Source: Hyphomicrobiales bacterium
GTDB lineage: Bacteria; Pseudomonadota; Alphaproteobacteria; Rhizobiales; Xanthobacteraceae
Assembly: GCA_003164375.1 (NCBI GenBank)
Contig: PLTE01000108.1
Location: forward strand, 1-38,459
Direction: 5' to 3'
Length of the DNA stretch: 38,459 bases
Each line of letters begins with the position of its first letter. Positions within the stretch are counted from its first letter, which is position 1. The notes beneath the pieces were generated by a model. It was not told the DNA's origin and ran no database searches. It worked only from the letters and a program-made list of their open reading frames with translations. The position numbers and the translations under genes are program-made. This document shows positions 14,995-30,190 of the stretch, one piece after another.

Positions 14995-16965
14995 ATGGGT
15001 ATCTTCGATGCATTGACCACCGCGGTGGCTGGTCTGCAGGCACAATCGTTCGCGCTTCAGAATATTTCCGGCAACATCGCAAACTCACAAACGACGGGCT
15101 ACAAGGAAACCGACACTAGTTTTGCGGATTTGGTTTCGGCTGCTTCGCAAAACCAGCAGACCACGGACGGCGTTATCGCCAATTCGGTCGCGACCAACGG
15201 CGTGCAAGGTTCGATCCAGAGCACATCGGTCTCCACCGACATGGCGATCAATGGCGCGGGCTATTTCGTGGTGGCCCAGCCGACCGGAAATAGCGGCACC
15301 ACCCCGACCTTCAACGGCGTCAGCGACTACACGCGGGCCGGCAATTTTGCGATGAATAACGAGGGCTATTTGGTCAACGGCTCCGGCTATTATCTCATGG
15401 GCATCCCGGTCGATCCGACCACCGGAAATCCGACCGGCAGTTCTCCACAGGTTCTGCAGTTCAACAATGAATTTGTGCCGGCGCAGGCGACGACGGCCAT
15501 CCAATATCAGGCAAACCTGCCAAGCACGCCGAGCTCGGGCGTGCTCAATGCAAGCGATTTCGAAGCCAACCCGCTCGCCGGAGCTCCAGTGGCGGCAACA
15601 ATCACCGGAACCGGCGGCAAGCTCAATCCGGATGCGCTGGCGACCGGCACTGGCACGCAGGGCGGGCTTTCGGCTACCACCACTCTTGCGTCACTGGGAA
15701 TCACGAGCGGACAGACCGTCACGATCGACGACGGAACGAACACGACGACGTTCACGGCAACTGGGACGAGCACGGTCGGCAACCTGCTCACTGCCATCAA
15801 TAGCGGCACTGCGGCGGTCGGGGCCACCATCAACAGCGCCGGGGATATGGTCCTCACCGGCCAAAGCTACACATCGTCGATTACGGTCGGCGGTACCGCG
15901 GCTTCCAATATCGGCTTCGGTGCCGGCCAGAATTCGTTCTCGCCGACCAATCTGCTGACGCAAAGCGCCGTATCGCAAGGGCAAACGCTCACCGTCCAGG
16001 TCGGCACCGGCGCGGCGCAGACCATCACGTTCGGTACCGGAGTCGGTCAGGTCGCGACGCTTGGGGAATTGCAGACTGCGATCCAGGGCTTGTCCGGCGT
16101 AAACGGCAGCGTGAATACAGCCAACGGCGATGTCACGCTGACGGCGGGCAACCCGACCGTCTCCTTGACCGTCGGCGGCACCGCGTCGGCCGCGAAATTC
16201 GGCATTCAAACATTAACCGCTCTGCCGGCCGACGGCACGGTCGTCGCCAATGACGTATCCACGTTCACCGCTCAGTCGATCGATGGCGGTTCGATCACGG
16301 CTTATGATACCGAGGGCAATTCGGTCAACGTCCAGTTCCGCTGGGCGCAGACGGGCACCGGCGCTTGGCAGCTGTTCTATCAAAGCAATTCGGCGGCAAC
16401 GGGCACGCAAGCCGCCTGGCAGAACGTCGGCACAAACTTCACGTTCAATTCGAGCGGCGAGTTGACGCCGCCGATCTCGAACGTGACACTGCAAAACTTG
16501 ACCGTGAACGGCGACTCGCTCGGCGGTGTTCAGCTCAATTTCGGCACTAACGGTCTCACCCAATTCGCCAATCCAAGCGGCACGTCGCAGGTGAGCCAAC
16601 TGCAGCAGAACGGTTACGCTGCCGGCCAGCTCCAATCGGTCGCGGTCAATAGTCAGAACCAAATCACCGGCACGTTCTCGAATGGCCAGACTATTGCGTT
16701 GGCGGATATCTCGCTGGCGACATTCAACGGCCAGGATTCGCTGCAGGCGCTCAACGGCGGCGCTTATGCCGCTACCGCCGATTCTGGATCGGCGATCCTT
16801 GGCGCGTCGGGTAAGATCGTCGGCAGCTCGCTGGAATCCTCAAATGTCGATATCTCCACCCAATTCAGCAATTTGATCATCGCGCAACAAGCCTATTCGG
16901 CCAATGCGCGTGTCATGACGACGTCCGATCAGATGATCCAAAGCCTGCTTCAGGTTATCCAGTGA
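14995..16965 (+). CDS. flgE: flagellar hook protein FlgE (large, 656 aa)
   Basis: ATG at 14995 preceded by GGAGA. The N-terminus is MGIFDALTTAVAGLQAQSFALQNISGNIANSQTTGYK. The C-terminus is LESSNVDISTQFSNLIIAQQAYSANARVMTTSDQMIQSLL. The central part carries a two-module insertion. Confidence 0.9.
   Translation: MGIFDALTTAVAGLQAQSFALQNISGNIANSQTTGYKETDTSFADLVSAASQNQQTTDGVIANSVATNGVQGSIQSTSVSTDMAINGAGYFVVAQPTGNSGTTPTFNGVSDYTRAGNFAMNNEGYLVNGSGYYLMGIPVDPTTGNPTGSSPQVLQFNNEFVPAQATTAIQYQANLPSTPSSGVLNASDFEANPLAGAPVAATITGTGGKLNPDALATGTGTQGGLSATTTLASLGITSGQTVTIDDGTNTTTFTATGTSTVGNLLTAINSGTAAVGATINSAGDMVLTGQSYTSSITVGGTAASNIGFGAGQNSFSPTNLLTQSAVSQGQTLTVQVGTGAAQTITFGTGVGQVATLGELQTAIQGLSGVNGSVNTANGDVTLTAGNPTVSLTVGGTASAAKFGIQTLTALPADGTVVANDVSTFTAQSIDGGSITAYDTEGNSVNVQFRWAQTGTGAWQLFYQSNSAATGTQAAWQNVGTNFTFNSSGELTPPISNVTLQNLTVNGDSLGGVQLNFGTNGLTQFANPSGTSQVSQLQQNGYAAGQLQSVAVNSQNQITGTFSNGQTIALADISLATFNGQDSLQALNGGAYAATADSGSAILGASGKIVGSSLESSNVDISTQFSNLIIAQQAYSANARVMTTSDQMIQSLLQVIQ
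15676..16206 (+). repeat. two tandem protein-level copies of the Thr/Gly-rich ~80-aa module inside FlgE
   Basis: The first copy (ORF-track residues 245-326) is ...GQTVTIDDGTNTTTFTATGTSTVGNLLTAINSGTAAVGATINSAGDMVLTGQSYTSSITVGGTAASNIGFG. The second copy (residues 335-421) is ...GQTLTVQVGTGAAQTITFGTGVGQVATLGELQTAIQGLSGVNGSVNTANGDVTLTAGNPTVSLTVGGTASAAKFGI. Confidence 0.7.
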
Positions 16966-17015: not shown

Positions 17016-18875
17016 ATGGGACTCTCTCAGGCGTTAGCCTCCGCTGTGGCCGGGGTAAATACGACCCAGCGCAGCCTGTCGGTCATCGCCGGCAACGTGG
17101 CGAACTCCAACACTCCCGGCTATGTCGACGAAAGCGTCAATCAGGTCGAGCTCGCGGCCGGCGGCCAGGCCGGGACGAGCGTCGCGGTCGACGGCATCAA
17201 TCGCAATCTCAACACGTTGTTGCAGAGCCAGTTGTGGACCGAAACGTCGGGCGGTTCCTACGCCGATACGACGGCGTCGCTCTATCAGCAGCTTCAGAAT
17301 GTCTACGGTACGCCGGGATCGTCGACCTCGTTCGATGCGATCTTCAATAATTTCACCAGCGCCCTGCAGTCGCTGTCGACGAGCCCCAGCTCCTACTCCG
17401 CTCAGTCCGCCGTGGTCAGTTCCGCGCAAGCCGTGGCGCAAAATCTCAATTCGATGACCGGGAATATCCAGCAACTGCGCACGCAGGCCGAACAGGGCAT
17501 CGCCAATGACGTGACGACTGCGAACAGCATGTTGACGCAGATCGCCCAAATCAACCAGCAATTGACCGGGGTCACCACGTCCGACAGCGCCAACGCGGCG
17601 CTCGAGGACCAGCGCGACCAGGATATCACACAGCTCACCCAGTTGATGAACGTCAACGTGGTCCAGAATTCCGACAATCAGATTTCGCTCTTCACCGGCA
17701 CCGGCCAGCAACTGGTCAGCGGGTCGCAGGCCTCGCAGCTTTCGTTCAACAACGCGGGATCGCTGTCGCCGACCGCGCAGTGGAGCGCCAATCCGAGCCA
17801 GGACGGCGTCGGCACAATTATGCTGACTTCGCCCGGCGGCGGCACGACCACGGATCTGGTCGCCACCAACGCCATCCAGTCGGGCCAGATCGGCGCCTAT
17901 CTGCAGATGCGCGACACCATCTTGCCGCAGGCGCAGAGCCAGCTCGACGAGATGGCCAATCAGATGTCGCAGGCGCTGTCGAACCAAACGACGTCTGGGA
18001 CGACAGCGACGTCGGGTTCGCAGTCCGGTTATAGCGTCGATGTCGGCTCGATTGTGCCCGGCAATACTGTTCAACTGACGTACACAAATTCCCAAAACGT
18101 CCAACAAACCGTCACCATCGTCGCGCTGGGCGCCGGCGGGGCGGTACCGGCGCAAGCGTCCTCGGCCAATAACCAGGTGATCGGCGTCAATTTTTCCGGC
18201 GGCATGAGTTCGGTCGTGTCGCAGCTCAATTCGGTGCTCGGCACCAACCTGCAATTCTCGAACCCGTCCGGCACGGTCTTGCAGGTGGTCAACAACGGCA
18301 GCGGCAACGTCGTCAATTCGCTTTCGGCGACCTCGACGGTGACGTCGCTGACCAGCGGTAGCCCGCAGCTTTCGCTGTTCACCGACGGAACCGCGCCGAT
18401 TACCGGCGCGCTCACCGCGGACGGTTCGCAGACCACGGGCCTGGCCGGAACTATCGAAGTCAATCCCGCGATCGTCGCCTCGCCGTCGAGCTTGGTCGCC
18501 TATGCATCGACGACCGCGTCGGGCGACCCGACGAGGCCGAACTTCATCCTCAACCAGATGACCGACGCTTCGCTGACCTATTCGCCTGATACCGGCTTCG
18601 GCAGCGCGGCCGCGCCCTATAGCGGTACGCTGAGCGATTACATGAGCCAGGTCGTCAGCCAGCAATCGCAAGCCGCCAACGCGGCGACGAACTTGCAGCA
18701 AGGCCAGGACACCGTCGTCACCGCGTTGCAGCAGCGCTTCAACGATCAGTCCGGCGTCAATATCGATACCGAAATGTCGAACCTGATTGCGCTGCAAAAT
18801 GCTTACGGCGCCAATGCACGCGTCATGAGCACGATTCAACAAATGATGTCGGCGCTAATGCAAGCGGTACAGTAA
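17016..18875 (+). CDS. flgK: flagellar hook-associated protein 1 FlgK
   Basis: N-terminus MGLSQALASAVAGVNTTQRSLSVIAGNVANSNTPGYV. C-terminus GVNIDTEMSNLIALQNAYGANARVMSTIQQMMSALM. Confidence 0.9.
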   Translation: MGLSQALASAVAGVNTTQRSLSVIAGNVANSNTPGYVDESVNQVELAAGGQAGTSVAVDGINRNLNTLLQSQLWTETSGGSYADTTASLYQQLQNVYGTPGSSTSFDAIFNNFTSALQSLSTSPSSYSAQSAVVSSAQAVAQNLNSMTGNIQQLRTQAEQGIANDVTTANSMLTQIAQINQQLTGVTTSDSANAALEDQRDQDITQLTQLMNVNVVQNSDNQISLFTGTGQQLVSGSQASQLSFNNAGSLSPTAQWSANPSQDGVGTIMLTSPGGGTTTDLVATNAIQSGQIGAYLQMRDTILPQAQSQLDEMANQMSQALSNQTTSGTTATSGSQSGYSVDVGSIVPGNTVQLTYTNSQNVQQTVTIVALGAGGAVPAQASSANNQVIGVNFSGGMSSVVSQLNSVLGTNLQFSNPSGTVLQVVNNGSGNVVNSLSATSTVTSLTSGSPQLSLFTDGTAPITGALTADGSQTTGLAGTIEVNPAIVASPSSLVAYASTTASGDPTRPNFILNQMTDASLTYSPDTGFGSAAAPYSGTLSDYMSQVVSQQSQAANAATNLQQGQDTVVTALQQRFNDQSGVNIDTEMSNLIALQNAYGANARVMSTIQQMMSALMQAVQ

Positions 18876-20387
18876 ATGAGCATCACCGGGCCCGGGTCGA
18901 TCGCCGCTCTGAATATTCAGGCGGTCAACAATATGAATAACCAGCTCAACACGTTGAGCACGGAACTTGGCACCAACCAGGCGGCCCAAACCTATTCCGG
19001 CCTCGGCTCGCAGGCCGGCGTGGCGCTGGCCTTGAACGCGCAGCTTTCGGCGATCAACGGTTATAGCAACACCGCCACGACGGTTGGCACGACGCTGAGC
19101 GTCGCGCAATCGACGTTGACGCAACTCGGCAGCAGCGGAAGCTCGGTTCAACAGGCGATCAACCAGCAAGGCGCCTTCAGCCTGAACAGCAACGGACAGA
19201 CGACGACTCAGGCAGCCGCCGCCACGCAGCTCGGCGAGATCCTGTCCCTACTCAACACCCAGGTCGGCAATAATTATATTTTCTCGGGCAGCGCGACGAC
19301 CCAGCCGTCAGTCGCCAGCATGTCCGACATCCTCAACGGCAATGGCGCGCAAGCGGGTTTCACGCAGGTGATGGCGCAACGCCTGCAGGCCGATCAAGGC
19401 GCCAATGGGCTCGGCCGCCTGGTCATTCCGGCGCCCTCAGCCTCGACTGTTTCGATCAGCGAGGATGCCGCCAACTCGCCGTTCGGGTTCAAGCTTGCGA
19501 GCGTGAATTCGTCGCTGACCGGTGCGACCGTCACCGGCCCGACCGGCTCGCCCGCGTCGATCTCGGTCGATTTGGGCTCCAATCCCAATGCCGGCGATTC
19601 GATCGCGTTCGGCCTCACGCTTCCCGACGGCTCAAGCCAAACCATCACGCTACAAGCCACCACGGCCTCGCCGGCGGGCACCAACCAGTTCACCATTGGT
19701 GCGACGCCCGCAGACACCGCAACCAATCTGCAGGCGGCGCTGAGCGCCGCGGTCGGCAATCTCGATCAGACCGCGCTGCCGGCTGCATCCGCCGTCGCCG
19801 CGGCCGATAACTTCTTCAGCTCAGACCCACCCCAACGGGTCGCCGGGCCGCCCTACGACTCGGCCACCTCATTGGCAAACGGGACTTCGGCGAACACCGT
19901 ATTCTGGTACACCGGCGAAAACGGCAGCACGCCGGCGCGGCAGACCGCGACCGCCCAGGTCGGTCCCTCGACGACCATCGATTACGGCATGCGCGCCAAC
20001 GAGCAGGCGATCAGCACGCTGGTCGCGAACGTGGCCGTCCTTGCGGCAACGACCTATTCGGCAAGCGATCCGAACGCCGGAGCGAATTACCAGGCGTTGA
20101 GCCAGAAGGTGACGGCGAACCTCGACGGTCAATCCGGTACCCAGTCGATCGACGATATCGAGGCCGATCTTGCGAATTCGCAGACCACGGTCAGCAACGC
20201 CACCGCACTGAATACGCAGACGCAAACCACGCTACAGGACATGATGCAAAACATCGACGGTATCAATCAAAACCAGATCGGTGAACAGATCCTAACATTG
20301 CAGAACAGTCTGTCAGCCTCGTTGTCGGTGACCGCACGCATGGCGCAGCTCAGCCTGGTCAATTTTCTGGCGCCGTCAACGGGCTAA
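18876..20387 (+). CDS. flgL: flagellar hook-associated protein 3 FlgL (flagellin-fold)
   Basis: The ATG directly abuts the flgK stop. Flagellin-like N- and C-terminal helices are present (…QILTLQNSLSASLSVTARMAQLSLVNFL), and the gene sits immediately after flgK. Confidence 0.8.
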   Translation: MSITGPGSIAALNIQAVNNMNNQLNTLSTELGTNQAAQTYSGLGSQAGVALALNAQLSAINGYSNTATTVGTTLSVAQSTLTQLGSSGSSVQQAINQQGAFSLNSNGQTTTQAAAATQLGEILSLLNTQVGNNYIFSGSATTQPSVASMSDILNGNGAQAGFTQVMAQRLQADQGANGLGRLVIPAPSASTVSISEDAANSPFGFKLASVNSSLTGATVTGPTGSPASISVDLGSNPNAGDSIAFGLTLPDGSSQTITLQATTASPAGTNQFTIGATPADTATNLQAALSAAVGNLDQTALPAASAVAAADNFFSSDPPQRVAGPPYDSATSLANGTSANTVFWYTGENGSTPARQTATAQVGPSTTIDYGMRANEQAISTLVANVAVLAATTYSASDPNAGANYQALSQKVTANLDGQSGTQSIDDIEADLANSQTTVSNATALNTQTQTTLQDMMQNIDGINQNQIGEQILTLQNSLSASLSVTARMAQLSLVNFLAPSTG

Positions 20388-20417: not shown

Positions 20418-21371
20418 TTACCCGGCACGATCGATCGGCGTTTCACTGCGGCGGGTTGCAGTTCTGACGAATATTGAATCGGCGGCGCAGGTCGCATTGC
20501 GGCCAAAATTGTCGGTAAAACGCGTGTCGACCAGATACTCGCCGGGATGCGCACCGACGAAGTCGCGGATCGCCTGCCGTTTCACGTCGCTGTCTTCGAC
20601 GACCAGATAATCGCCGGGCGACAGCACCGGGTGGAACTGTTCAAGCACGCCGATGACGTTGTGATGCGCGTCCTCGACGACGAGCCATGGATGCGGCTCC
20701 GAGTGGAGAAGGTCGGAATCGAACAGCCGTTCCGGGGCGGAACAATCGCCCTGATAGAATTTGACGTGCGGATACTCCATCTCGACCTTGACCCGGTCGA
20801 CCGAATGGACCTGCCCTTGGATGCCGCTCAGCGCCAGATTATCTGCAAACCAGACGGCACTTGCGCCGAGGCCGGATCCGATTTCGAAAATGGTTTGCGG
20901 GCGCAGCTCCGCGATCAGCGCCGGGTACATGGCGAAATCGAAGACGTTCTTCATCAGCGGCGTGCCGCGCCAGCGCATCAGTGACGGTGCGCCCTGGCAG
21001 GTCAGCAGCACGTCGAGGCCGAACTCGGTGCCGAACCGCGGATGATAATGGACACCCGATCGCTCGCGCTCGGAATACTCGACCAGATGGCCCTGCACCC
21101 AGCGATCGAGGAACAGCCGCAGGCGCATCAAGTCCCATTGCAGGCTAAGGTCTTGCGCGGGCGGCCGCGCGGCATTTTCGCGGACGCTGTCCTCCCACGA
21201 ACGGCTCGGATCGAAAGCGATCAAGCGCGTCAGGACGCGCGTAAACCAACTGTCGAAGATGCTGTGCAGGCCATTTTGTTCGCGCTCAACCTTGTCGCGC
21301 ATTTCACTCAAGAATTTGAGCGCAGCCGCCTTCAAGGCGTCGCCGGAAATCAAAGTTGCCTCGGTCGTCAT
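20418..21371 (-). CDS. CmcI-family (cephalosporin hydroxylase / rhamnosyl O-methyltransferase family) SAM-dependent methyltransferase
   Basis: WRGTPLMKNVFDFAMYPALIAELRPQTIFEIGSGLGASAVWFAD matches the CmcI core pattern (G.P..K...D...Y..L..E.KP..IIE.G...GGSA.W.A) from memory. A later VVEDAHH motif is also present. Confidence 0.7.
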   Translation of the reverse strand: MTTEATLISGDALKAAALKFLSEMRDKVEREQNGLHSIFDSWFTRVLTRLIAFDPSRSWEDSVRENAARPPAQDLSLQWDLMRLRLFLDRWVQGHLVEYSERERSGVHYHPRFGTEFGLDVLLTCQGAPSLMRWRGTPLMKNVFDFAMYPALIAELRPQTIFEIGSGLGASAVWFADNLALSGIQGQVHSVDRVKVEMEYPHVKFYQGDCSAPERLFDSDLLHSEPHPWLVVEDAHHNVIGVLEQFHPVLSPGDYLVVEDSDVKRQAIRDFVGAHPGEYLVDTRFTDNFGRNATCAADSIFVRTATRRSETPIDRAG

Positions 21372-21398
21372 GGGATTTCCTTCCCGACCGGCACGCGC

Positions 21399-22244
21399 CT
21401 AAGCACCGGCGAATTGCGACGCCAGATCGCCGCAAAACGTCATCGGGCCGACGTGGTTGAGCTTGCTTCCAAGATCCGCCCAGATCTCGCCGCCGAGTTC
21501 AATCCAGCGCTTGCAAAAGGCGAAATCCTCGCTGAGGTAGGTGCCGTCATCGGCGATCATGCATTCGAACAAAGCGAAGCGGTTGTCGCTTGCGGTCGCG
21601 GCATCGACGGAATGATCGCGTTTGTAGCGCAGCTGCGGATAATGTGCGCACATTTTTGCCAGCGCTTGGCGCCGGATCATGAGAAAACCGGTGCCGGCGT
21701 ACCGCACCTTGACGAAGCCACCTTTCTCGATGACGGCGTTGGGATCGTCGACCTCGAACACATATTTTAAGGCCGCGCCCGCCGCGTTGGGTCGCCCGCC
21801 CTCGATCGTCGTCTTCACCCTGTCCCAGTCGATCCGCTTGATCGGATAGATCGCGGCACACATGTCGGCGCCGCATTCGATCAGACGCAGCACTTGATCC
21901 GGCTCGAAGCCGATGTCGGCGTCGATAAACAACAGGTGGGTGGCATCCGGATCGTCCAGGAATTGGGAGATCAGGCTCGCCCGCGCCCGCGTGATCAGCG
22001 CGTCGCCGTCCTTGAACAAGATCTTGAGGTTGAAGTCGCTATAGGCGCGGATCAACTTTTGCAGCTTAAACAGCGAGGCTGCATAAAGCACCGAAATCTG
22101 TCCGCCGAAGCACGGTGTGGCGATGACGAGATTGACGGTGTTAGGGGCCGTGGCGGTTCCCGCCAGCTCGGCGGCGGTCCTGCCGGCGGGAGGCGCTGCG
22201 CGGGCGCCGCCGGCCTTGTGATCGGACTCCGAGGCAGTCGACAT
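21399..22244 (-). CDS. putative GT-A-fold (family 2-like) glycosyltransferase
   Basis: VNLVIATPCFGGQISVLYAASL...ITRARASLISQFLDDPDATHLLFIDADIGFEPDQVLRLI. This is the usual GT-A layout with a DxD motif (DAD). The exact family was not identified. It is probably co-transcribed with the methyltransferase downstream (27-nt gap). Confidence 0.5.
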   Translation of the reverse strand: MSTASESDHKAGGARAAPPAGRTAAELAGTATAPNTVNLVIATPCFGGQISVLYAASLFKLQKLIRAYSDFNLKILFKDGDALITRARASLISQFLDDPDATHLLFIDADIGFEPDQVLRLIECGADMCAAIYPIKRIDWDRVKTTIEGGRPNAAGAALKYVFEVDDPNAVIEKGGFVKVRYAGTGFLMIRRQALAKMCAHYPQLRYKRDHSVDAATASDNRFALFECMIADDGTYLSEDFAFCKRWIELGGEIWADLGSKLNHVGPMTFCGDLASQFAGA

Positions 22245-22628: not shown

Positions 22629-24467
22629 ATGTCTGACATCACCTTGAGCAGTGGCATTCGGCAGAACTTGCTGGCCCTGCAGAACACGTCCAACGACTTG
22701 AATACCACGCAGGAACAGCTTGCGACCGGTAAGAAGGTCAATACGGCGTTCGACAATCCGACCTCCTATTTCACCTCGCAGTCGCTGACCAACCGGTCCA
22801 ACGACCTGAGCGCGCTTCTCGACCAGATCGGTCAGGCGCAGCAGACGTTGAACGCGGCCAACGACGGCCTCACCGGCTTGACGAGCCTGCTCGAACAGGC
22901 GCTGTCAACAGCGCAGCAGGCGCAACAGGCGACCACGGGCACCGTGACCTATAGCGGCACGCAAACCGGCAGCGCAATTGTCGCCGACACGACGCAAGCC
23001 GTCAGCACGACCAGTTTCGCCAGTGCGGTCAGCGCTTCAACGGCTTCGGTGCAGACCAAGTCGACGTTCGACTCCGCCGGCATCGGCCAGCTGACGAGCG
23101 GCGATACCCTGACCTATTCGCTCGCCGGCACCACGGTGACGGCCACGTTCGGCGCCGCGACCGATACGACCACCAACACCTTCAGCAACGTCGCCGGCCT
23201 GATCAGCGTTCTGCAGAGCGGCACCGGCGCCAGCGGCAACCTCAGCGCTGTGGCGAGCATCACCAACGTCGGCGGCAACGTCCAGGTGCTCGGTGACGAT
23301 CTCACCCACAACCTGACGACAAGCGCCACCAGCACCAACCTCACCGCCGGCAATTTTACAAGTAACACCTCGGCTGCCACGCTTGGCGATGCGCTGACGA
23401 TTTCTGACGGTGAAGGTCACACGTCGTCATTCTACTACGTTGCCGCCAATGCCGTTTCTGCAAGCGACACCTTCACGAGCTCGGCCAATCTTGTCAGCGC
23501 CATCAGCGGCTCCAACCTGGGCAGCACGGTCACAGCGACCGTTCCAAGCTCCGGCGCCAACAATGGCAAACTCGTGCTCAGCAGCCCGGATGGGGCCATC
23601 ACAGTCGGTGGAGCTTTCGGCAACACCGATCTGGGTCTGTCCTCGACGGCTTACAAAAACAACTACAACTCGACATTGGCAGGGCTTGCCGCCGACAGCA
23701 CGCTGACGATCCAGGTCGGCACCGACGCGGTAAATACGCTGACCTTCGGCACCGGCAACGGCCAGATCTCGACCCTGGCGGGGCTCAATAGCGCGCTTTC
23801 GGCCATCGGAGATATCTCCGCATCGGTCAACTCGCAGGGCAAGATCGTGTTGGCGCCGACAAGCTCGAACATCGTCACCATCGGCGGCACCGCCGGGACG
23901 GTGAGCTCGCTCGGCTTCTCCAGCGGCGTCACTACGCCGACTGCGACGGTCGTCACCCCGAGCTCGACCCGCGCCACGCTGCAGAGCAACTATAATGCCC
24001 TGCTGACGCAGATCGATCAGCTCGCCGGGGACTCGTCCTATAACGGCGTCAACCTGCTCGCCGGCAACAACCTGACGGTCAACTTTAATGAGAACGGCAC
24101 CAGCGGTCTGACGATCGGCGGCGTCAACTTCAGCTCGTCGGGGCTTGGACTGTCGGCGATCAGCGGCAACGGTTTCCAGGACAACACCAACATTGCGTCC
24201 ACGGAAACCGCGATCAACAACGCAATCACCAACGTGCGGGCCCAAACCGAGACGTTCGGCACCAACTCGTCGACCATCTCGACCCGCCAGACGTTCGAAA
24301 CCAACCTGATCAACACCCTGCAGACGGGCGCCAGCAATCTCGTGCTGGCCGATCAGAACCAAGCTAGCGCCAACTTGCTGACCGAGCAAACCCAGCAGCA
24401 GTTGGAAATCTCCGCACTGTCCATCGCCAATCAGGCGGACCAGTCGGTGCTCAAGCTGTTCGGCTAA
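22629..24467 (+). CDS. fliC: flagellin (large 612-aa type, as in Bradyrhizobium thick-flagellum FliC)
   Basis: N-terminus MSDITLSSGIRQNLLALQNTSNDLNTTQEQLATGKKVNTAFDNPTSYFTSQSL. C-terminus QASANLLTEQTQQQLEISALSIANQADQSVLKLFG. The central domain is Ser/Thr-rich and repetitive. The RBS is GAAGGG, and an intrinsic terminator follows. Confidence 0.9.
   Translation: MSDITLSSGIRQNLLALQNTSNDLNTTQEQLATGKKVNTAFDNPTSYFTSQSLTNRSNDLSALLDQIGQAQQTLNAANDGLTGLTSLLEQALSTAQQAQQATTGTVTYSGTQTGSAIVADTTQAVSTTSFASAVSASTASVQTKSTFDSAGIGQLTSGDTLTYSLAGTTVTATFGAATDTTTNTFSNVAGLISVLQSGTGASGNLSAVASITNVGGNVQVLGDDLTHNLTTSATSTNLTAGNFTSNTSAATLGDALTISDGEGHTSSFYYVAANAVSASDTFTSSANLVSAISGSNLGSTVTATVPSSGANNGKLVLSSPDGAITVGGAFGNTDLGLSSTAYKNNYNSTLAGLAADSTLTIQVGTDAVNTLTFGTGNGQISTLAGLNSALSAIGDISASVNSQGKIVLAPTSSNIVTIGGTAGTVSSLGFSSGVTTPTATVVTPSSTRATLQSNYNALLTQIDQLAGDSSYNGVNLLAGNNLTVNFNENGTSGLTIGGVNFSSSGLGLSAISGNGFQDNTNIASTETAINNAITNVRAQTETFGTNSSTISTRQTFETNLINTLQTGASNLVLADQNQASANLLTEQTQQQLEISALSIANQADQSVLKLFG
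23076..23918 (+). repeat. three divergent copies of the same module forming the flagellin central domain
   Basis: The clearest copy is DSTLTIQVGTDAVNTLTFGTGNGQISTLAGLNSALSAIGDISASVNSQGKIVLAPTSSNIVTIGGTAGTVSSLGF. Two weaker copies start at GDTLTYSLAGTTVTATFG and GDALTISDGEGHTSSFYY. Confidence 0.6.
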
Positions 24468-24525: not shown

Positions 24526-24592
24526 CGTGGCGAATGGTCGGAGGCTGCACGGTGTCCTGCTCGTTATTGTGTGGCCGCTATTTTTCGGACGC

Positions 24593-24608
24593 TTAGCAAG
24601 CCCTTAAC
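24593..24608. promoter_or_regulatory. near-consensus CtrA box TTAG-N7-TTAAC upstream of flbT-flaF
   Basis: TTAGcaagcccTTAAC has one mismatch. It ends 41 nt upstream of the flbT GTG. Confidence 0.35.
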
Positions 24609-24648
24609 CCGCATCCGTGACGATGGATCGCCTCATAAGGATTCACGC

Positions 24649-25389
24649 GTGGCCCTAAAGATCGAGCTCAAGCCTAACGAACGCATCCTCCTCGGCGATT
24701 GCGTCGTCACCAATAACGGCCAGCGCACGCGTCTCATGGTCGAGGGGAAGGTGCCCATTCTGCGTGAAAAGGACATCATGTCGCTGGGCAGCGCCAATAG
24801 CCTGGCGAAACTCATCTATCTCGCTGTGCAGTTCATCTACACGGCCAAGCGACCGCAGGACCATCACGCGCTTTACGTCCGGCTGGCGGATGAATTTGTG
24901 AAACGCGCGCCCAGTGCGAAGCCATATATTGAGAGCATCAACAATCGAATCTTAACAGGCGAGCCGTATAAGGCGCTAAAGGAAGCGCGCAAGCTCATTG
25001 CCTACGAAAAGGAGCATCTCGACATGCATTACGCCAGCAACGCCTACGCGAAGACCGCCATTGACACGGCAGGCCCGCGCGAACTCGAGGCGAATTTGCT
25101 TTTGCAAGCTGCGGCGAAGTTGCAGGCTGTTCATGATTCGTGGCGCGATAAGCCGTCCGGCCTCGACGATGCAATCCTGTACAATCGCCGGCTTTGGACG
25201 GTATTCCTCGACGCGGTGACGAGCGAAGGCAACAGGTTGCCGGCCGCGGTCCGCGAGAATATCAGGCGGCTCGGCGTTTTCGTCATGGGGGAGACGTTCT
25301 CGCTGATGACCAATCCGAAGCCGGATCACCTGACGTCGATCATCAAGATCAATCGCGGCATCGCCGCCGGCCTGCGCGGCAAGGCGTAA
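24649..25389 (+). CDS. flbT: FlbT-FlaF in-frame fusion ORF (flagellin translation regulator pair)
   Basis: GTG at 24649 with AAGGA 7 nt upstream. The FlbT-like part is (M)ALKIELKPNERILLGDCVVTNNGQRTRLMVEGKVPILREKDIM...AKLIYLAVQFIY. It runs with no stop codon into a FlaF-like part, MHYASNAYAKTA...PRELEANLLLQAAAKLQ...YNRRLWTVFLDAV...LPAAVRENI. The track ORF starts at an upstream GTG (24571). Confidence 0.75.
   Translation: MALKIELKPNERILLGDCVVTNNGQRTRLMVEGKVPILREKDIMSLGSANSLAKLIYLAVQFIYTAKRPQDHHALYVRLADEFVKRAPSAKPYIESINNRILTGEPYKALKEARKLIAYEKEHLDMHYASNAYAKTAIDTAGPRELEANLLLQAAAKLQAVHDSWRDKPSGLDDAILYNRRLWTVFLDAVTSEGNRLPAAVRENIRRLGVFVMGETFSLMTNPKPDHLTSIIKINRGIAAGLRGKA
25024..25389 (+). CDS. flaF: possible independently translated FlaF (internal start within the fusion frame)
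   Basis: ATG at 25024 with a strong AAGGAG 9 nt upstream, exactly where stand-alone FlaF proteins begin (MHYASNAY...). Same frame as the flbT part. Confidence 0.4.
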   Translation: MHYASNAYAKTAIDTAGPRELEANLLLQAAAKLQAVHDSWRDKPSGLDDAILYNRRLWTVFLDAVTSEGNRLPAAVRENIRRLGVFVMGETFSLMTNPKPDHLTSIIKINRGIAAGLRGKA

Positions 25390-25494: not shown

Positions 25495-27042
25495 TCAGGC
25501 GGCGCGCGGGACATCCAGTCGAAGCCGCCCGCGCAGATGCGGTATGCGACTTACATCCATCCTTGCCGCGAGCATCCGCATATAAATCAGCTCTTCTTTG
25601 GTTGCTATTGCAAAATCCGCGAATTCGCGTTGCCCGTCGTGGAGATCTGCGTCCGACAGCGACGTTTCGAAAAGATCGAGCCAGCCGGATTCTTCCACGT
25701 CGCCGTCCGCGCCCTCATGAAACAGCATCTTTTGCCGATCGCGAATGCAAGTCGGTAGCTCGGAAGGATACAGGTCATAGAGCGCTCGTAACGGCGCCTT
25801 GCCGATCGGGGCATTGCTCGTTTGTCGCACCAAACAGGATTCATCGAGCTCACTCGCATAATCGACGACCGTTTGATCGAGGAACGGCTCGCGTATTTCG
25901 AGTTGGAATTGCATCGAACAGCGATCGACCCGTTGAAGATTGGCGCGATGCATCATGCCCAAACATTGCTTCTGCATATCGCGGCCGCCGCCGTCAGGCC
26001 GGGTAAAAGCCCGTTCGAGGGGCGAATAGCCTGCGAATAATTCATCGGCGCCTTCGCCGCACAGCGCGACGCGGAAACCGTCTTGATGTATGCGCTGCGA
26101 GAGAAGATAGGTGTAAAGACTAGGACGGATCACCGAGGGCTCGAACGTCTCCACGGTATCAACGACCGTCTCGATGAGGGGGAGCGTCTTGGTGCAATGC
26201 GCTTCAACGGCCACCTCGCGCAGGTTGAGACCGGTCTCCTCCGCATAATGTTTGGCGTAAAGATGATCGGGCGCATTGCACCCGACCGCGATGTAGCCCG
26301 GCATGGCCGGAGAAAATCTGCGCGCGTAATGCATAACAAGCGTGCTATCGATGCCGCCGCTGAACAAGGCCGCGACCGGAAGGTTCGCGGGCACGCGGAT
26401 GCGCACGGCTTCCGATAGAATTCGGTCCAGTTCCTGGGGCGAGGCGGCGCTCGAGGTTGTTGGGGATGGCAGGTTGTAATGGCGCCCGCAGAAATCACGG
26501 GTCAGCAAATGGCCAGGCGGCAACAATAAGACGGCGTCGCCATCGGTCGCATCCAGGAGCGGTCGGATTTCCGAGCAAAACAGAAAGCCCTTGGGCGACT
26601 GGATGAGATAAAGCGGCTTTACGCCGAAAGGGTCGCGCGCGGCCAAGAACTCGCCGGTCGCCGTATCGATCGCAACGAAGGCATACATGCCGGCCAGGCG
26701 TTTGATCCCGGCTTGGCCCCACGCTCGCAGCACATTCGCGACAACTTCCGTGTCGCATTGCGTGCGGAAACGCACGCCGAGCGCCTCCAATTCCCGACGT
26801 AGAACGTCGTGATTGTAGATCTCGCCATTGAACGAGACGAGAAAGCGCTCATCGAAGGAGGCTTGCGGCTGCGCGCCGTTTGCCGCGTCTACAATGCGCA
26901 AGCGGCGTGTGCACATCGCGGTGTTGTTTCCGACCATGACGAGTGGGTCGGTGACGTCGCCCCGATGCAGCATACCCGCGATCAACTGCCGGACTGCCGA
27001 TCCGGCGTCATCCCAATCGATAGCAACCGCTATGCCGCACAT
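25495..27042 (-). CDS. asparagine synthase (glutamine-hydrolysing) family amidotransferase
   Basis: N-terminal MCGI (Cys2 Ntn nucleophile), PP-loop motif FSGGIDSTLV, and 515 aa of AsnB-like layout. Confidence 0.85.
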   Translation of the reverse strand: MCGIAVAIDWDDAGSAVRQLIAGMLHRGDVTDPLVMVGNNTAMCTRRLRIVDAANGAQPQASFDERFLVSFNGEIYNHDVLRRELEALGVRFRTQCDTEVVANVLRAWGQAGIKRLAGMYAFVAIDTATGEFLAARDPFGVKPLYLIQSPKGFLFCSEIRPLLDATDGDAVLLLPPGHLLTRDFCGRHYNLPSPTTSSAASPQELDRILSEAVRIRVPANLPVAALFSGGIDSTLVMHYARRFSPAMPGYIAVGCNAPDHLYAKHYAEETGLNLREVAVEAHCTKTLPLIETVVDTVETFEPSVIRPSLYTYLLSQRIHQDGFRVALCGEGADELFAGYSPLERAFTRPDGGGRDMQKQCLGMMHRANLQRVDRCSMQFQLEIREPFLDQTVVDYASELDESCLVRQTSNAPIGKAPLRALYDLYPSELPTCIRDRQKMLFHEGADGDVEESGWLDLFETSLSDADLHDGQREFADFAIATKEELIYMRMLAARMDVSRIPHLRGRLRLDVPRAA

Positions 27043-27231: not shown

Positions 27232-28134
27232 TCAGGCCAGCAGATCGAGCAACGAGCCCGACGAGCCGCTGCTCGCCAAGAGGGTTTCGGCAGTGCCGCC
27301 GGTCTGCAGCGCGAGGGCGGAATTAAACAGGACGGCCGCGGGGGAACTGGCGGCAGTGCTGGTGGACGACCCTGTCGAACTGCTTGCGGCGCTCGTGGAC
27401 GATCCTGCCGCGCTCGAGGAACTTGAAGAAGTGGAACCGGAGGCGCTGGAGGAACTGGAAGAGTTGGCAGCGCTGGAAGTGGGGGCGGTCGGCTGGAAAC
27501 TGGAGTTCTGGGCGCCGAAGCCGACGCTTGATGCAAAAACGCCCCCGACCGAGATCGAATCGGTGAGATTTTTGCCGGTGAGAACCAGGTCGCCGCCGGC
27601 ATTAAGCGACGCCGTCACCTGGGCATTGGCGGCAACGTTTGGATTGTTGATGGCATTGATCAGATCCTGAACCGTATCCGTGCCCGTCGACGCGAAGGTC
27701 GTCGTGTTGGTGCCGTCACTGACGGTGATCGTGCCATTCTGGGGAATCCCGAGCGTTAACAGCGAGGTACTCGCGGAAAGCGGCACCGTGCCGGTTCCGG
27801 TTGCCGGTGCGCCGGTCGTTGGAGCGTTGGACGTAGACCCGCTGGAACTGGCTTGTGAGGCTTGCACTGCGCTTTGCAATGCGGCGGTAAGTTGGGCTTG
27901 GACGCGCGTTTGCGCTTCCTTGGTCGCAATGGCCGCCAAGCCCGACGCTTCGTTGCTCACGGCGCTGCCTAATCCTGTAATCAGCGCATCGCTTAACGAG
28001 GAAGTCTGATTCTCGGTCTGAACCTGGCTCCAATAGGTCTGGTCCTGTTGCCAGAACGTCTGGCTGCTTCCTATGCTTCCGATACTCATGGACTGCGACG
28101 CCTTGCCAGACCGGTCTCCCCTGCGGTCATTCAT
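27232..28134 (-). CDS. orphan Ser/Thr-rich flagellar-cluster protein carrying one hook/flagellin-type module and a poly-Ser tract
   Basis: 300-aa ORF; an alternative ATG lies at 28089 (MSIGSIGSS...). Residues ~121-207 align closely with FlgE module 1. A poly-Ser segment covers residues ~219-264. No signal peptide is visible. Function unknown. Confidence 0.6.
   Translation of the reverse strand: MNDRRGDRSGKASQSMSIGSIGSSQTFWQQDQTYWSQVQTENQTSSLSDALITGLGSAVSNEASGLAAIATKEAQTRVQAQLTAALQSAVQASQASSSGSTSNAPTTGAPATGTGTVPLSASTSLLTLGIPQNGTITVSDGTNTTTFASTGTDTVQDLINAINNPNVAANAQVTASLNAGGDLVLTGKNLTDSISVGGVFASSVGFGAQNSSFQPTAPTSSAANSSSSSSASGSTSSSSSSAAGSSTSAASSSTGSSTSTAASSPAAVLFNSALALQTGGTAETLLASSGSSGSLLDLLA
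27343..27480 (-). repeat. poly-Ser low-complexity coding tract
   Basis: TSSAANSSSSSSASGSTSSSSSSAAGSSTSAASSSTGSSTSTAASS in the orphan protein. The plus strand shows the complementary GAA/GGA-rich periodicity. Confidence 0.8.
27514..27774 (-). repeat. single copy of the module in the orphan protein
   Basis: NGTITVSDGTNTTTFASTGTDTVQDLINAINNPNVAANAQVTASLNAGGDLVLTGKNLTDSISVGGVFASSVGFG is closest to FlgE copy 1. The similarity extends into the following GAQNSSFQPT versus GAGQNSFSPT. Confidence 0.7.
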
Positions 28135-28190: not shown

Positions 28191-28285
28191 CATGGCCGAC
28201 TTTGCGGTAAAGGCACCGTGGGCGGGAGCCGCTCCTCGGCGGTATGGTGCTCCCGTCGCCAGTCCGAGGCTGCAGGCAGGATTCC

Positions 28286-30190
28286 ATGGCGAAGCAGGCG
28301 ACCGCGAGGCTTTCGCAACTCGGCCGCTCTTTCGAGCAGGGGCTGGCACTGCACCGGGGCGGACGGCTCGCTGAGGCCGACCGAATCTATGAAGCCATTC
28401 TCGCGGCCGATCCGCGCCACTTCGATGCGCTGCATCTGTCCGGCGTTCTCAGAAATCAACAGGGCCGGTCTGTCGAGGCTCTGCATTTGGTTTCGGCGGC
28501 ATTGAACATCAAGTCCGGATCGGTGGACGCGCTTGTGAGTCATGGCGTGATCCTTGATGCGCTCAAGCGCCATGAAGAAGCGCTGGCGAGCTTCGATCGA
28601 GCGCTGGCGGCGCGTGCCGGCGACGCTACCTTGCACTATAACCGCGGCAATTCGCTCAAAGGTCTCGGCCGCTACGCGGAGGCGTTGGCGAGCTACGATC
28701 GCGCGCTCGCGCTTGCGCCGGATCTCGCCCCCGCCCACCACAATCGCGGCAGTACCTATGCGGAGCTCGATCGGAACGATGAGGCGCTGGCGAGCTTCGA
28801 CCAGGCGCTTTTGCTGTGCCTTGAGCGGGCCGGCATCAAGATGGAGAATGGCATCTCCCTGGCAACGATTGATCGCGGCGATGAATTGTTTGCAAGGCTC
28901 CGTCAAGCGCTCGCCGCCGATCCCAACAGTGCCGACATACTGAGCAATCGCGGCAAGGTTCTCAACCGGTTCAAACGCTACCATGAGGCGATTGCGTGCT
29001 TTGACGCGGCGCTGGCGCTTCGCCCCGACCAAGCGGACACGCTCTGTCATCGCGGCGACGCATGCGCAGGGATCGGCCGCTACGACGATGCGTTTGCGAA
29101 TTTCGCGGAGGCGCTTTGCGTTGCGCCGAATTTCGCCGATGCGCATCTTAAGCGCGGCAATGCTTTGGTCGAGTTGAACCGAATGGACGAAGCGATGCGC
29201 AGCTTTAGCGCCGCTGTAGCGATCAAGCCGGACAACGCGGACGCGAACTTCAACGAAGCGCTGACCCGGCTGTGCCTGGGCGATTTTCGCCAGGGTTGGA
29301 AAAAGTATGAATATCGGTGGGAAAGGGCTGAATGGGCGAAGGACCGGCCAAATTATCCGCGTCCGATGTGGCGCGGAGAGCAGGAGCTGCAGGGCAAGAC
29401 AATTCTTCTTGTCGCCGAACAAGGCTTTGGCGACGCCATCCAATTCGCACGCTACGCACCGCTGTTAGCAGCGCTCGGCGCAAAGGTGTTGCTTGGCGTC
29501 CGGTCCCCGCTCACTGCACTAATGGCAACCGTACCCGGTGTCTCGCAAGTGATAAGCGCGGGTGAGACTCTGCCCCCCTTCGATCTCTACTGCCCGCTGT
29601 TGAGCCTGCCATTAGCGTTCGGAACCGAACCGGCAACGATACCGGCCACGGTCCCCTATCTGCGAGCTTCTGAAGAGCGCATCGCCAAATGGCGCGGCAG
29701 ATTACCGGACAGTGGCCGGCTGCGAATCGGAATTTGCTGGGCCGGCATAAGCGGGCATCCCAACAATCACCGACGTTCGATACCGCTCGAGCGCTTCGCC
29801 ACGATATTGTCGGCGCCGGGCGTCGACTTCGTCAGTCTGCAAAAGGATGTCGGCGAGTCGGACGCGACGATCCTGAGCGCACACGGCGTAAATCAGCTTG
29901 GGCAGGAATTCGCGGATTTTGCCGATACCGCCGCCGTCGTCGCGATGCTCGATCTCGTGATCTGCGTCGACACTTCGGTCGCGCATCTTGCCGGCGCGAT
30001 GGGCAAGGCCGTCGGCGTGCTGATACCGTTTTCGCCGGACTTCAGGTGGATGCTCGACCGCACCGACAGCCCTTGGTATCCGACCATGCGGCTGTTTCGG
30101 CAACCCGCGATCGGCGACTGGGACGGACCGCTCGATCGGCTGCGCCAGGAACTTTCCGCTCTCGGAAGCCGTCCGCTCAAGCCGCGGTGA
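28286..30190 (+). CDS. TPR-repeat protein fused to a GT9-like (heptosyltransferase-fold, GT-B) glycosyltransferase domain
   Basis: ATG at 28286 (MAKQATARLSQLGRSFEQGLALHRGGRLAEADRIYEAIL...). There are multiple 34-aa TPR units (…A..Y..AL...P....A..NRG...). The C-terminal domain carries KTILLVAEQGFGDAIQFARY, RIGICWAG and DTSVAHLAGAMGK...SPWYPTMRLFRQ. Confidence 0.75.
   Translation: MAKQATARLSQLGRSFEQGLALHRGGRLAEADRIYEAILAADPRHFDALHLSGVLRNQQGRSVEALHLVSAALNIKSGSVDALVSHGVILDALKRHEEALASFDRALAARAGDATLHYNRGNSLKGLGRYAEALASYDRALALAPDLAPAHHNRGSTYAELDRNDEALASFDQALLLCLERAGIKMENGISLATIDRGDELFARLRQALAADPNSADILSNRGKVLNRFKRYHEAIACFDAALALRPDQADTLCHRGDACAGIGRYDDAFANFAEALCVAPNFADAHLKRGNALVELNRMDEAMRSFSAAVAIKPDNADANFNEALTRLCLGDFRQGWKKYEYRWERAEWAKDRPNYPRPMWRGEQELQGKTILLVAEQGFGDAIQFARYAPLLAALGAKVLLGVRSPLTALMATVPGVSQVISAGETLPPFDLYCPLLSLPLAFGTEPATIPATVPYLRASEERIAKWRGRLPDSGRLRIGICWAGISGHPNNHRRSIPLERFATILSAPGVDFVSLQKDVGESDATILSAHGVNQLGQEFADFADTAAVVAMLDLVICVDTSVAHLAGAMGKAVGVLIPFSPDFRWMLDRTDSPWYPTMRLFRQPAIGDWDGPLDRLRQELSALGSRPLKPR

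Follow-up and report, generated by a model that had tools for sequence, protein, structure and literature searches.

The module-bearing flgE locus

We analysed a stretch of 38,459 nt (hereafter the window) of contig PLTE01000108.1 from the Xanthobacteraceae (Hyphomicrobiales) assembly GCA_003164375.1, which carries a flagellar cluster of the Caulobacter/Bradyrhizobium type, with a focus on a protein module repeated in the hook protein FlgE, in the flagellin and in a small conserved protein, here called the orphan protein. The genes flgE, flgK and flgL follow one another in the cluster, and the same order was found in 53 related loci. The product of 14995-16965, of 656 amino acids (aa), matched the Pfam families Flg_bb_rod, FlgE/F/G D1 and Flg_bbr_C, with 50.4 bits for PF06429 (cut-off 23), 37.1 bits for PF22692 (cut-off 27) and 20.3 bits for PF00460, slightly under its cut-off of 20.7, and furthermore TIGR03506 with 244.6 bits (cut-off 70.25); solved FlgE structures were matched with E-values down to 2e-31. 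Judged from these matches, the product is the flagellar hook protein FlgE. Its nearest relatives (63-97% identical) come from metagenome-assembled genomes of uncultured soil Xanthobacteraceae, and its farther relatives from Pseudolabrys, photosynthetic Bradyrhizobium and Afipia.

A preliminary description of this DNA had reported two tandem modules of ~80 aa between the conserved regions of FlgE (15676-16206, residues 228-404), three occurrences of the same pattern in the flagellin (23076-23918, residues 150-430) and one in the orphan protein (27514-27774, minus strand, residues 121-207 of a 300-aa open reading frame, ORF). All of these were indeed recovered, and the features concerned are as follows.

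14995-16965, plus strand: flgE, hook protein, 656 aa, assigned by Pfam, TIGR03506 and matches to solved FlgE structures, with flgK and flgL next to it
15574-16218, plus strand: 215-aa insertion of FlgE (residues 194-408) that holds E1 and E2, delimited by alignment with bare FlgE proteins and by linkers in the AlphaFold2 (AF2) model
15685-15933, plus strand: FlgE module 1 (E1), residues 231-313, Flagellin_IN-type, supported by shuffle z-scores, PF07196 and AF2
15952-16212, plus strand: FlgE module 2 (E2), residues 320-406, supported by z-scores and hidden Markov model (HMM) comparison with C3, and by bootstrap
22629-24467, plus strand: flagellin, 612 aa, Pfam Flagellin_N and Flagellin_C
23076-23369, plus strand: flagellin module C1 (residues 150-247), which has diverged furthest of all copies, supported by hhalign
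23370-23648, plus strand: flagellin module C2, residues 248-340, supported by hhalign and the FlgE-only HMM
23667-23927, plus strand: flagellin module C3, residues 347-433, adjoining the C-terminal D1 helices, supported by z-scores and the E2 HMM
27232-28089, minus strand: orphan protein, 285 aa (300-aa ORF), which has one module besides a helical N-terminal region, linkers rich in Ser and a C-terminal tail that is conserved
27505-27774, minus strand: orphan module O1, residues 121-210 of the 300-aa ORF, supported by PF07196, the module-1 HMM and bootstrap

Sequence homology of the six copies

The copies were compared pairwise by local BLOSUM62 alignment, each pair against 500 composition-preserving shuffles. 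As a result, the z-scores were 9.1 for E1-E2, 8.4 for E1-C3, 14.8 for E2-C3, 23.1 for E1-O1, 6.0 for E2-O1 and 5.2 for C3-O1, and the observed score was reached by none of the 500 shuffles in any of these six pairs; scores no better than shuffles, which the preliminary description had named as refuting the shared pattern, were thus not what these main pairs gave. The pairwise tests were weak for the flagellin copies C2 (z ~3-3.7) and C1 (z ≤2.8). To avoid circularity, we also built HMMs from the FlgE modules of 120 homologues alone, leaving out the flagellin and orphan copies. These FlgE-only HMMs detected the orphan at 94 bits (module-1 HMM), C3 at 43 bits (E2 HMM) and C2 at 13 bits, and missed C1. 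When the orthologs of C1 and C2 were aligned by hhalign to the FlgE-only module profile, the probabilities were 96.9% (E=1.3e-10) and 96.2% (E=2.6e-9), respectively, over alignments of 71-75 columns, while the reversed and column-shuffled control profiles gave scores ≤19 and probabilities ≤5%.

Because the shuffle z-scores, the FlgE-only HMMs and the hhalign comparisons with clean controls all point in the same direction, the six copies E1, E2, C1, C2, C3 and O1 are, at the level of sequence, homologous, which bears out the threefold occurrence in the flagellin and the single one in the orphan. The module regions do have a strong composition bias, and shuffled pairs alone give local scores of 35-57, as would be the case if only a Thr/Gly/Ser/Ala-rich low complexity were shared; the composition-preserving shuffles, however, never matched the observed scores of the main pairs. 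Look-alike stretches in the FlgK (~349-460) and FlgL (~240-320) of the window were not significant in either the shuffle tests or the HMM searches.

A copy-number-variable insertion site in FlgE

Two stretches of FlgE, residues 1-179 and 431-653, can be aligned with solved FlgE structures, the second with residues 181-401 of Salmonella FlgE. In an alignment that took in the FlgE proteins of L050, L044, L025, L027, L020, P0131 and P0258 (our handles for related loci, L, and proteins, P), the inserts of all relatives fall at a single site, equivalent to window residues 194-408, and are absent from "bare" FlgE proteins of 455-460 aa. In the AF2 model, the insert is bordered by linkers of low predicted local distance difference test (pLDDT) score at residues 190-198 and 413-419. 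The number of modules at this site is 0, 1, 2 or 3-4, depending on the lineage: one is present in P0258 and in Bradyrhizobium (of the B type described below), two in the clade of the window and in L027 (both B-type), and in the 879-aa FlgE P0131 three were detected by HMM and a fourth is visible in the alignment.

We also considered the insert as an ordinary FlgE D2 domain, the second outcome that the preliminary description had named as refuting its proposal. PF07559 (FlgE_D2), however, maps to residues 433-549 of the related FlgE L020, after the insert and thus outside it, and the bare relatives retain D2 despite having no insert, so that this assignment was rejected. Among FlgE homologues, the modules are 64% and 75% identical, as compared with 79% for the core; since they are conserved almost like the core, the modules are under purifying selection rather than hypervariable filler.

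Two further observations concern the contents of the site. In one FlgE homologue among P0001-P0120, module 1 has its first two strands partly duplicated internally (TFTIDDGTTTTTYTITSANTITADDGTNTTTYTG), which suggests ongoing small-scale rearrangement inside the cassette. The first module of the Pseudolabrys-type FlgE (L020, residues ~235-310) and of P0131 belongs to a third, more canonical Flagellin_IN subtype (INGTPIAITAGDNAAAVLAAINAQTG), which scores 29.8 bits against PF07196 and is followed by E2-type copies. Since the third subtype precedes E2-type copies in L020 and P0131, the FlgE hotspot accepts mixed cassettes.

Assignment to the Flagellin_IN family

PF07196 (Flagellin_IN, "Flagellin hook IN motif"; gathering cut-off 22.7 bits) matched O1 alone with 31.3 bits and the full orphan protein with 27.3 bits, and E1 with 18.1 bits (E=0.003), under the cut-off. 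E2, C1, C2 and C3 gave no PF07196 match in the Pfam scans, and the membership of the whole set is therefore by chained homology, the link to O1 being the E1-O1 pair (z=23.1) and the 94 bits of the orphan with the FlgE module-1 HMM. PF07196 was also matched by 19 of 48 related modules (E≤0.01) and by 28 of 53 orphan homologues (E≤1), with no other family recurring in either set, and some FlgE relatives already bear precomputed PF07196 matches. The I-N pair of the central helix is kept in E1 (LLTAINSG) and O1 (LINAINNP), and is replaced in E2 (AIQ), C3 (ALS), C2 (AIS) and C1 (VLQ). Furthermore, the module lies in the central parts of FlgE, of the flagellin and of the FlgL of relatives, and in the cluster-encoded orphan, which fits the occurrence of Flagellin_IN. 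On these grounds, the module is best placed as a divergent subfamily of PF07196.

The preliminary description had instead suggested DUF1522 (PF07482), which is among the domains listed for flagellin hypervariable regions (PMC5595980 Table 1). No DUF1522 match was obtained for the modules at E≤10, nor at E≤0.01 for the Bradyrhizobium/Afipia-type flagellins, where it was expected; the Pfam-A copy used appears to be without the PF07482 model, and so this assignment cannot be made. The ~100-aa B-type repeat of the Bradyrhizobium flagellins may be the unit to which DUF1522 once referred.

Predicted fold of the module

The AF2 model of the full FlgE (120 homologues) has pLDDT values of 92-97 over residues 200-410, and each FlgE module is formed in it by a strand-strand-helix-strand-strand-strand order. 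A single module was modelled with a pLDDT of 89 and a predicted template modelling score (pTM) of 0.82, with the same b-b-a-b-b-b order. The module is thus predicted to be a compact, autonomous beta-beta-alpha-beta-beta-beta domain of ~85-90 aa.

In a Foldseek search of the PDB, the neighbours at the top of the list for the module formed a coherent set, although all were at E≥0.18: outer domains of Vibrio cholerae flagellins, the Campylobacter cap/junction complex, FliD of two species (6sih/6iwy) and the tail sheath of phage Milano, with probabilities of 0.5-0.89 and TM scores of 0.5-0.6, and also the Geovibrio flagellum 9au6. We take the Vibrio flagellins among these neighbours to carry PF07196. 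Searches of viral models with Foldseek gave large baseplate-J-like proteins as the best matches, which were not significant, and the whole FlgE model retrieved only FlgE cores, which is uninformative for the insert. At the sequence level, nothing was found in the PDB under E=0.49 with the module profile, the orphan profile gave only low-complexity noise, and a PHROGs scan of the isolated modules gave no match.

Distribution and cassette subtypes

A profile HMM of the six copies was run exhaustively against 1.84 billion cluster representatives (E≤1e-3), and the matching proteins were classed by their termini. Only 182 proteins matched. They comprise FlgE proteins, flagellins (1-5 copies each), FlgL proteins of at most 1234 aa in which 2-3 copies were detected, orphan-type proteins that are 260-340 aa long, proteins with non-flagellin termini whose 5-13 tandem modules repeat every ~93 aa, and two sheath proteins of contractile tails, P0185 and P0262 (PF04984/PF17482, phrog_23).

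A longer repeat of ~100 aa, which we call B-type as distinct from the A-type of the window, was found in Bradyrhizobium/Afipia-type loci (L025, L027, L042, L045 and others), with 1-2 copies in FlgE (as at residues ~240-340 of the L025 FlgE), one in FlgL and up to 4 in the flagellins. By hhalign, the A- and B-types are homologous to each other (probability 95.6%, E=1e-8, with clean controls), and a C3-type A module beside the C-terminal D1 is retained in several flagellins of the wider family, namely the Bradyrhizobium/Afipia-type ones of L028, L037, L045 and L051. Whether hook, junction protein and filament bear the A or the B subtype thus depends on the lineage, as judged from few independent events and with an imperfect match to the flagellin content.

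The multi-copy proteins are P0121 (1523 aa) and P0122-P0127 (~820-875 aa; the P0122 cluster is from Rhodobiaceae). The helical termini of P0121-P0127 have little or no match to the ends of the flagellin, FlgE, FlgK and FlgL of the window, P0123 and P0125 matching the flagellin C-terminus only, and these tandem proteins could represent a further type of surface or filament protein. In the sheath protein P0185 (L054, 10001-12622) the module scores 57.7 bits; a T4 gp19-like tube gene and a baseplate gene come after it, and two genes for LodA-like oxidases and a flavin-dependent halogenase-like gene precede it, in what resembles a prophage-tail or injection-system-like cluster.

Relations between the copies

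A neighbour-joining tree was calculated from 84 copies of 24 genomes, in which each copy position forms its own clade across the genomes. E1 was joined with O1 in 100 of 100 bootstrap replicates and E2 with C3 in 78 of 100, and the FlgE-only HMM cross-scores agree with the tree. The bipartition E1+E2 was found in 0 of 100 replicates, which rejects a simple tandem duplication within FlgE. At the DNA level, the copies of the window are only 60-66% identical, with exact runs of ≤15 nt; together with the positional orthology, this also rejects recent gene conversion or concerted evolution.

Since E1 groups with O1 and E2 with C3, and not with each other, the copies point to old shuffling between genes, and the position-specific clades with their low DNA identity therefore indicate an ancient transfer of cassettes between genes, with vertical inheritance since. 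Domain shuffling between exported axial proteins, one of the two possibilities raised in the preliminary description, is thus the best explanation of the sharing that these sequences offer.

The orphan protein

The 285-aa orphan is 100% identical to P0271 and has at least 679 relatives, which are named in their sources as "hypothetical" or "flagellin hook IN motif-containing protein". Its N-terminus, SFWQQDQNFW, and its C-terminal tail are conserved, and it also contains a helix and linkers rich in Ser. Its layout of N-terminal helix, Flagellin_IN domain and C-terminal helix is suggestive of a reduced FliD cap, but a FliD_N or FliD_C signal was obtained for 0 of 53 homologues (E≤1), which leaves this candidate unsupported.

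Other genes of the window

The remaining features that were assigned are the following; flgI, flgH, flgA and flgG lie downstream in the window.

17016-18875, plus strand: flgK
18876-20387, plus strand: flgL
20418-21371, minus strand: CmcI-type methyltransferase (CmcI/rhamnosyl-O-methyltransferase-like, a sugar O-methyltransferase)
21399-22244, minus strand: ORF of 281 aa without family match
24571-25389, plus strand: FlbT-FlaF in a single ORF
25495-27042, minus strand: AsnB-like amidotransferase
28244-30190, plus strand: first paralogue with tetratricopeptide repeats (TPR, by Pfam) and a glycosyltransferase family 9 (GT9)/GT-B-like domain, of FlmG-like architecture
33598-35247, plus strand: second TPR and GT9-like paralogue, with a Glyco_transf_9 match

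The two TPR and GT9/GT-B-like paralogues are 44% identical over 503 aa, and their genes flank flgI. The flagellin also matched the NCBIfam flagellin subfamilies PRK12688/PRK14708, under their cut-offs. The methyltransferase gene and the 281-aa ORF (20418-22244, minus strand), together with the AsnB-like gene (25495-27042, minus strand), surround the flagellin gene, and this neighbourhood looks like a small flagellin-glycan modification island. A single ORF without interruption codes for both FlbT (aa 29-149) and FlaF (aa 156-268), with the junction ...EKEHLD-MHYASNAY..., as in 11 related loci of the clade of the window; in the Bradyrhizobium/Afipia-type loci the genes are separate.

Discussion

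We consider it likely that the divergent Flagellin_IN domain described here is a plug-in outer-surface cassette of the axial flagellar proteins in this Hyphomicrobiales lineage, spread by old transfer between genes. In FlgE, the pair of modules sits early in the D2-homologous region, tied to the D0/D1/D2 core by two flexible linkers, and since flexible linkers join the insert to the core, the modules would project outward as extra hook domains, much like the additional outer domains of Campylobacter FlgE. In the flagellin, the three copies take the place of the variable region that usually separates the N-terminal from the C-terminal D1 helices. Beyond the homology, the family, the predicted fold, the insertion site, the copy-number variation and the copy phylogeny shown above, we infer that the modules would be solvent-exposed, as an outer layer or coat that gives hook and filament the same surface. 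Such a layer would present Thr/Ser-rich surfaces, and would most plausibly make the structure thicker or more stable when the cell moves through soil pores or viscous media. By analogy with the outer domains of flagellins and of Campylobacter/Helicobacter FlgE, the module is most likely a decoration domain that coats the hook and the filament.

Several points weigh against this proposal. Besides the missing direct PF07196 match of four of the copies, the module has no significant structural match in the PDB (best Foldseek E=0.18), and the Sphingomonas flagellin p5, a solved Flagellin_IN example, is outside its top 50 Foldseek neighbours. The AF2 model of the whole FlgE has a pTM of 0.44 and informs on secondary structure and confidence rather than on the placement of the modules relative to D2 or to neighbouring subunits. 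The match of cassette type between FlgE and flagellin comes from about two independent lineages, and in L010, L013, L014, L020 and L023 a decorated FlgE is accompanied by flagellins without detectable modules. Lastly, any mechanical or coating role is one that we infer by analogy.

Alternatively, the module could chiefly serve post-translational modification, as the unit that is recognised or that accepts the modification: the FlmG-like TPR-glycosyltransferases of the cluster would O-glycosylate its exposed, Thr/Ser-rich surface, such that the hook, the filament and the orphan carry the same glycan, as the other possibility in the preliminary description implied. FlmG is the flagellin O-glycosyltransferase of Caulobacter and combines TPR with a glycosyltransferase domain (PMC7591256), an architecture found in both TPR and GT9-like paralogues of the window; the CmcI-type sugar O-methyltransferase, the AsnB-like amidotransferase and the 281-aa ORF around the flagellin gene also fit such a pathway, as do the inserts with 26-31% Ser+Thr and neither Arg nor Cys. 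However, Ser/Thr is also high outside the modules (22-28%), hook glycosylation is not indicated in the FlmG paper (PMC7591256), and the module is also present on contractile-tail sheath proteins, which are unlikely FlmG substrates. We regard a primary role in glycosylation as unlikely; it is compatible with a structural one.

In a bolder form of these ideas, each lineage would deliberately place the same type of cassette on hook, junction, filament and a small secreted partner (A here, B in Bradyrhizobium), to be recognised by the FlmG-like enzymes or through module-module contacts. This is quite unlikely in our estimate; if true, the whole external flagellum would lie under one continuous glycosylated coat and the hook protein would be glycosylated too, the conserved orphan would belong to this coat as a newly recognised exported accessory, and the module on contractile-tail sheaths could reflect exchange with phage or tailocin genes. 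To our knowledge, glycosylation of a hook protein has not been described so far.

The module might also be a ligand-binding or adhesive domain, for instance for a polysaccharide, by which the flagellum and a secreted orphan would become an adhesin. For Sphingomonas p5, a role of the Flagellin_IN-bearing beta-domain in binding alginate was reported (PMC9751261), the single module of the orphan with its Ser-rich linkers resembles a displayed binding domain, and proteins with 5-13 tandem modules exist. The modules, however, did not show any conserved pocket or charged residues, Gly and hydrophobic core residues make up most of their conserved positions, and the Pfam scans of the modules, of the 48 related modules and of the 53 orphan homologues gave no lectin or carbohydrate-binding family above noise; we thus judge an adhesive function to be very unlikely. 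There is next to no probability that the similarity is only compositional or that the copies were homogenised by recent gene conversion, as both are ruled out by the shuffles, the reversed and column-shuffled profile controls, the positional orthologues of each copy in >20 genomes and the low DNA identity, and AF2 gives a well-packed fold.

As regards annotation, the FlgE inserts, the flagellin repeats and the at least 679 "hypothetical" proteins of the orphan family should be described as Flagellin_IN-type, not as DUF1522. The system also offers a clean, datable example of a flagellar outer surface built from interchangeable cassettes. If the coat has a mechanical or glycan-carrying role, the group would be a natural system in which to ask why some hooks are decorated; the cultured relatives are photosynthetic Bradyrhizobium, which have the B-type cassette. 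Among cultured carriers, Bradyrhizobium sp. ORS375 and B. oligotrophicum S58 have it in both FlgE and FlgL.

Comparison with known systems

The principle of shared flagellar surface domains is already established, since it is described in earlier work: Flagellin_IN is the commonest domain of flagellin hypervariable regions (PMC5595980 Table 1), was described in flagellins and hook-associated proteins (PMC9751261) and also occurs in FliD, a 2024 survey proposed that the outer domains of flagellins were recruited from other flagellar genes by recombination (PMC11532411), and tandem outer-domain ("DE") repeats are known in giant flagellins (PMC6248924). The premise of the preliminary description that sharing between hook and filament is unusual was therefore overstated, as the Pfam family is named for both, and flagellin outer domains akin to those of FliD and hook-associated proteins, gained through recombination between flagellar genes, had been described (PMC9751261, PMC11532411). 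What appears to be new is the subfamily itself, the copy-number-variable hotspot in FlgE, the sister relations between copies of different genes, the A/B cassettes that match by lineage between flagellin, FlgE and FlgL, the size of the orphan family and the copies in sheath proteins; none of these was found described in the literature that our search could reach.

As is usual for Flagellin_IN, the axial proteins of the flagellum carry the module either as a single copy or in tandem, and E1 and O1 bear the I-N pair (TAIN and NAIN, respectively). It differs in that the unit of ~85-90 aa comprises the 55-aa Pfam motif, an extra strand and a conserved (I/L)TVGGTA...FG tail, that E2 and C1-C3 are without the I-N pair and under Pfam detection, that the subfamily is narrow (182 representatives), and that the module lies within FlgE itself, at a defined insertion site.

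The FlgE proteins of Campylobacter jejuni and Helicobacter pylori (5jxl, 5az4, 5npy) are likewise long, and their extra length comes from the outer domains D3/D4. They are the top Foldseek and sequence matches of the whole FlgE, in a global alignment of low quality (TM 0.35, root-mean-square deviation 31 Å). The extra domains of these FlgE proteins branch from D2 and add stabilising contacts. The epsilonproteobacterial D3/D4 domains are not known to be Flagellin_IN-type or to recur in the flagellins of the same organisms; the additional domains of the window's FlgE consist of two copies of a cassette that the flagellin carries as well.

In the Geovibrio thiophilus flagellin, D2 has the fold of hook-associated proteins and D4 resembles the D2 of FliD (PMC11532411). 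The present case resembles Geovibrio and the giant flagellins in that outer domains were gained by recombination of flagellar-gene domains and then duplicated in tandem (PMC11532411, PMC6248924). In those systems, however, only the flagellin is concerned, whereas here a single genome has the same cassette in its hook protein, its flagellin and an accessory protein, and in relatives it is also found in FlgL, with the A or B subtype tracking the lineage.

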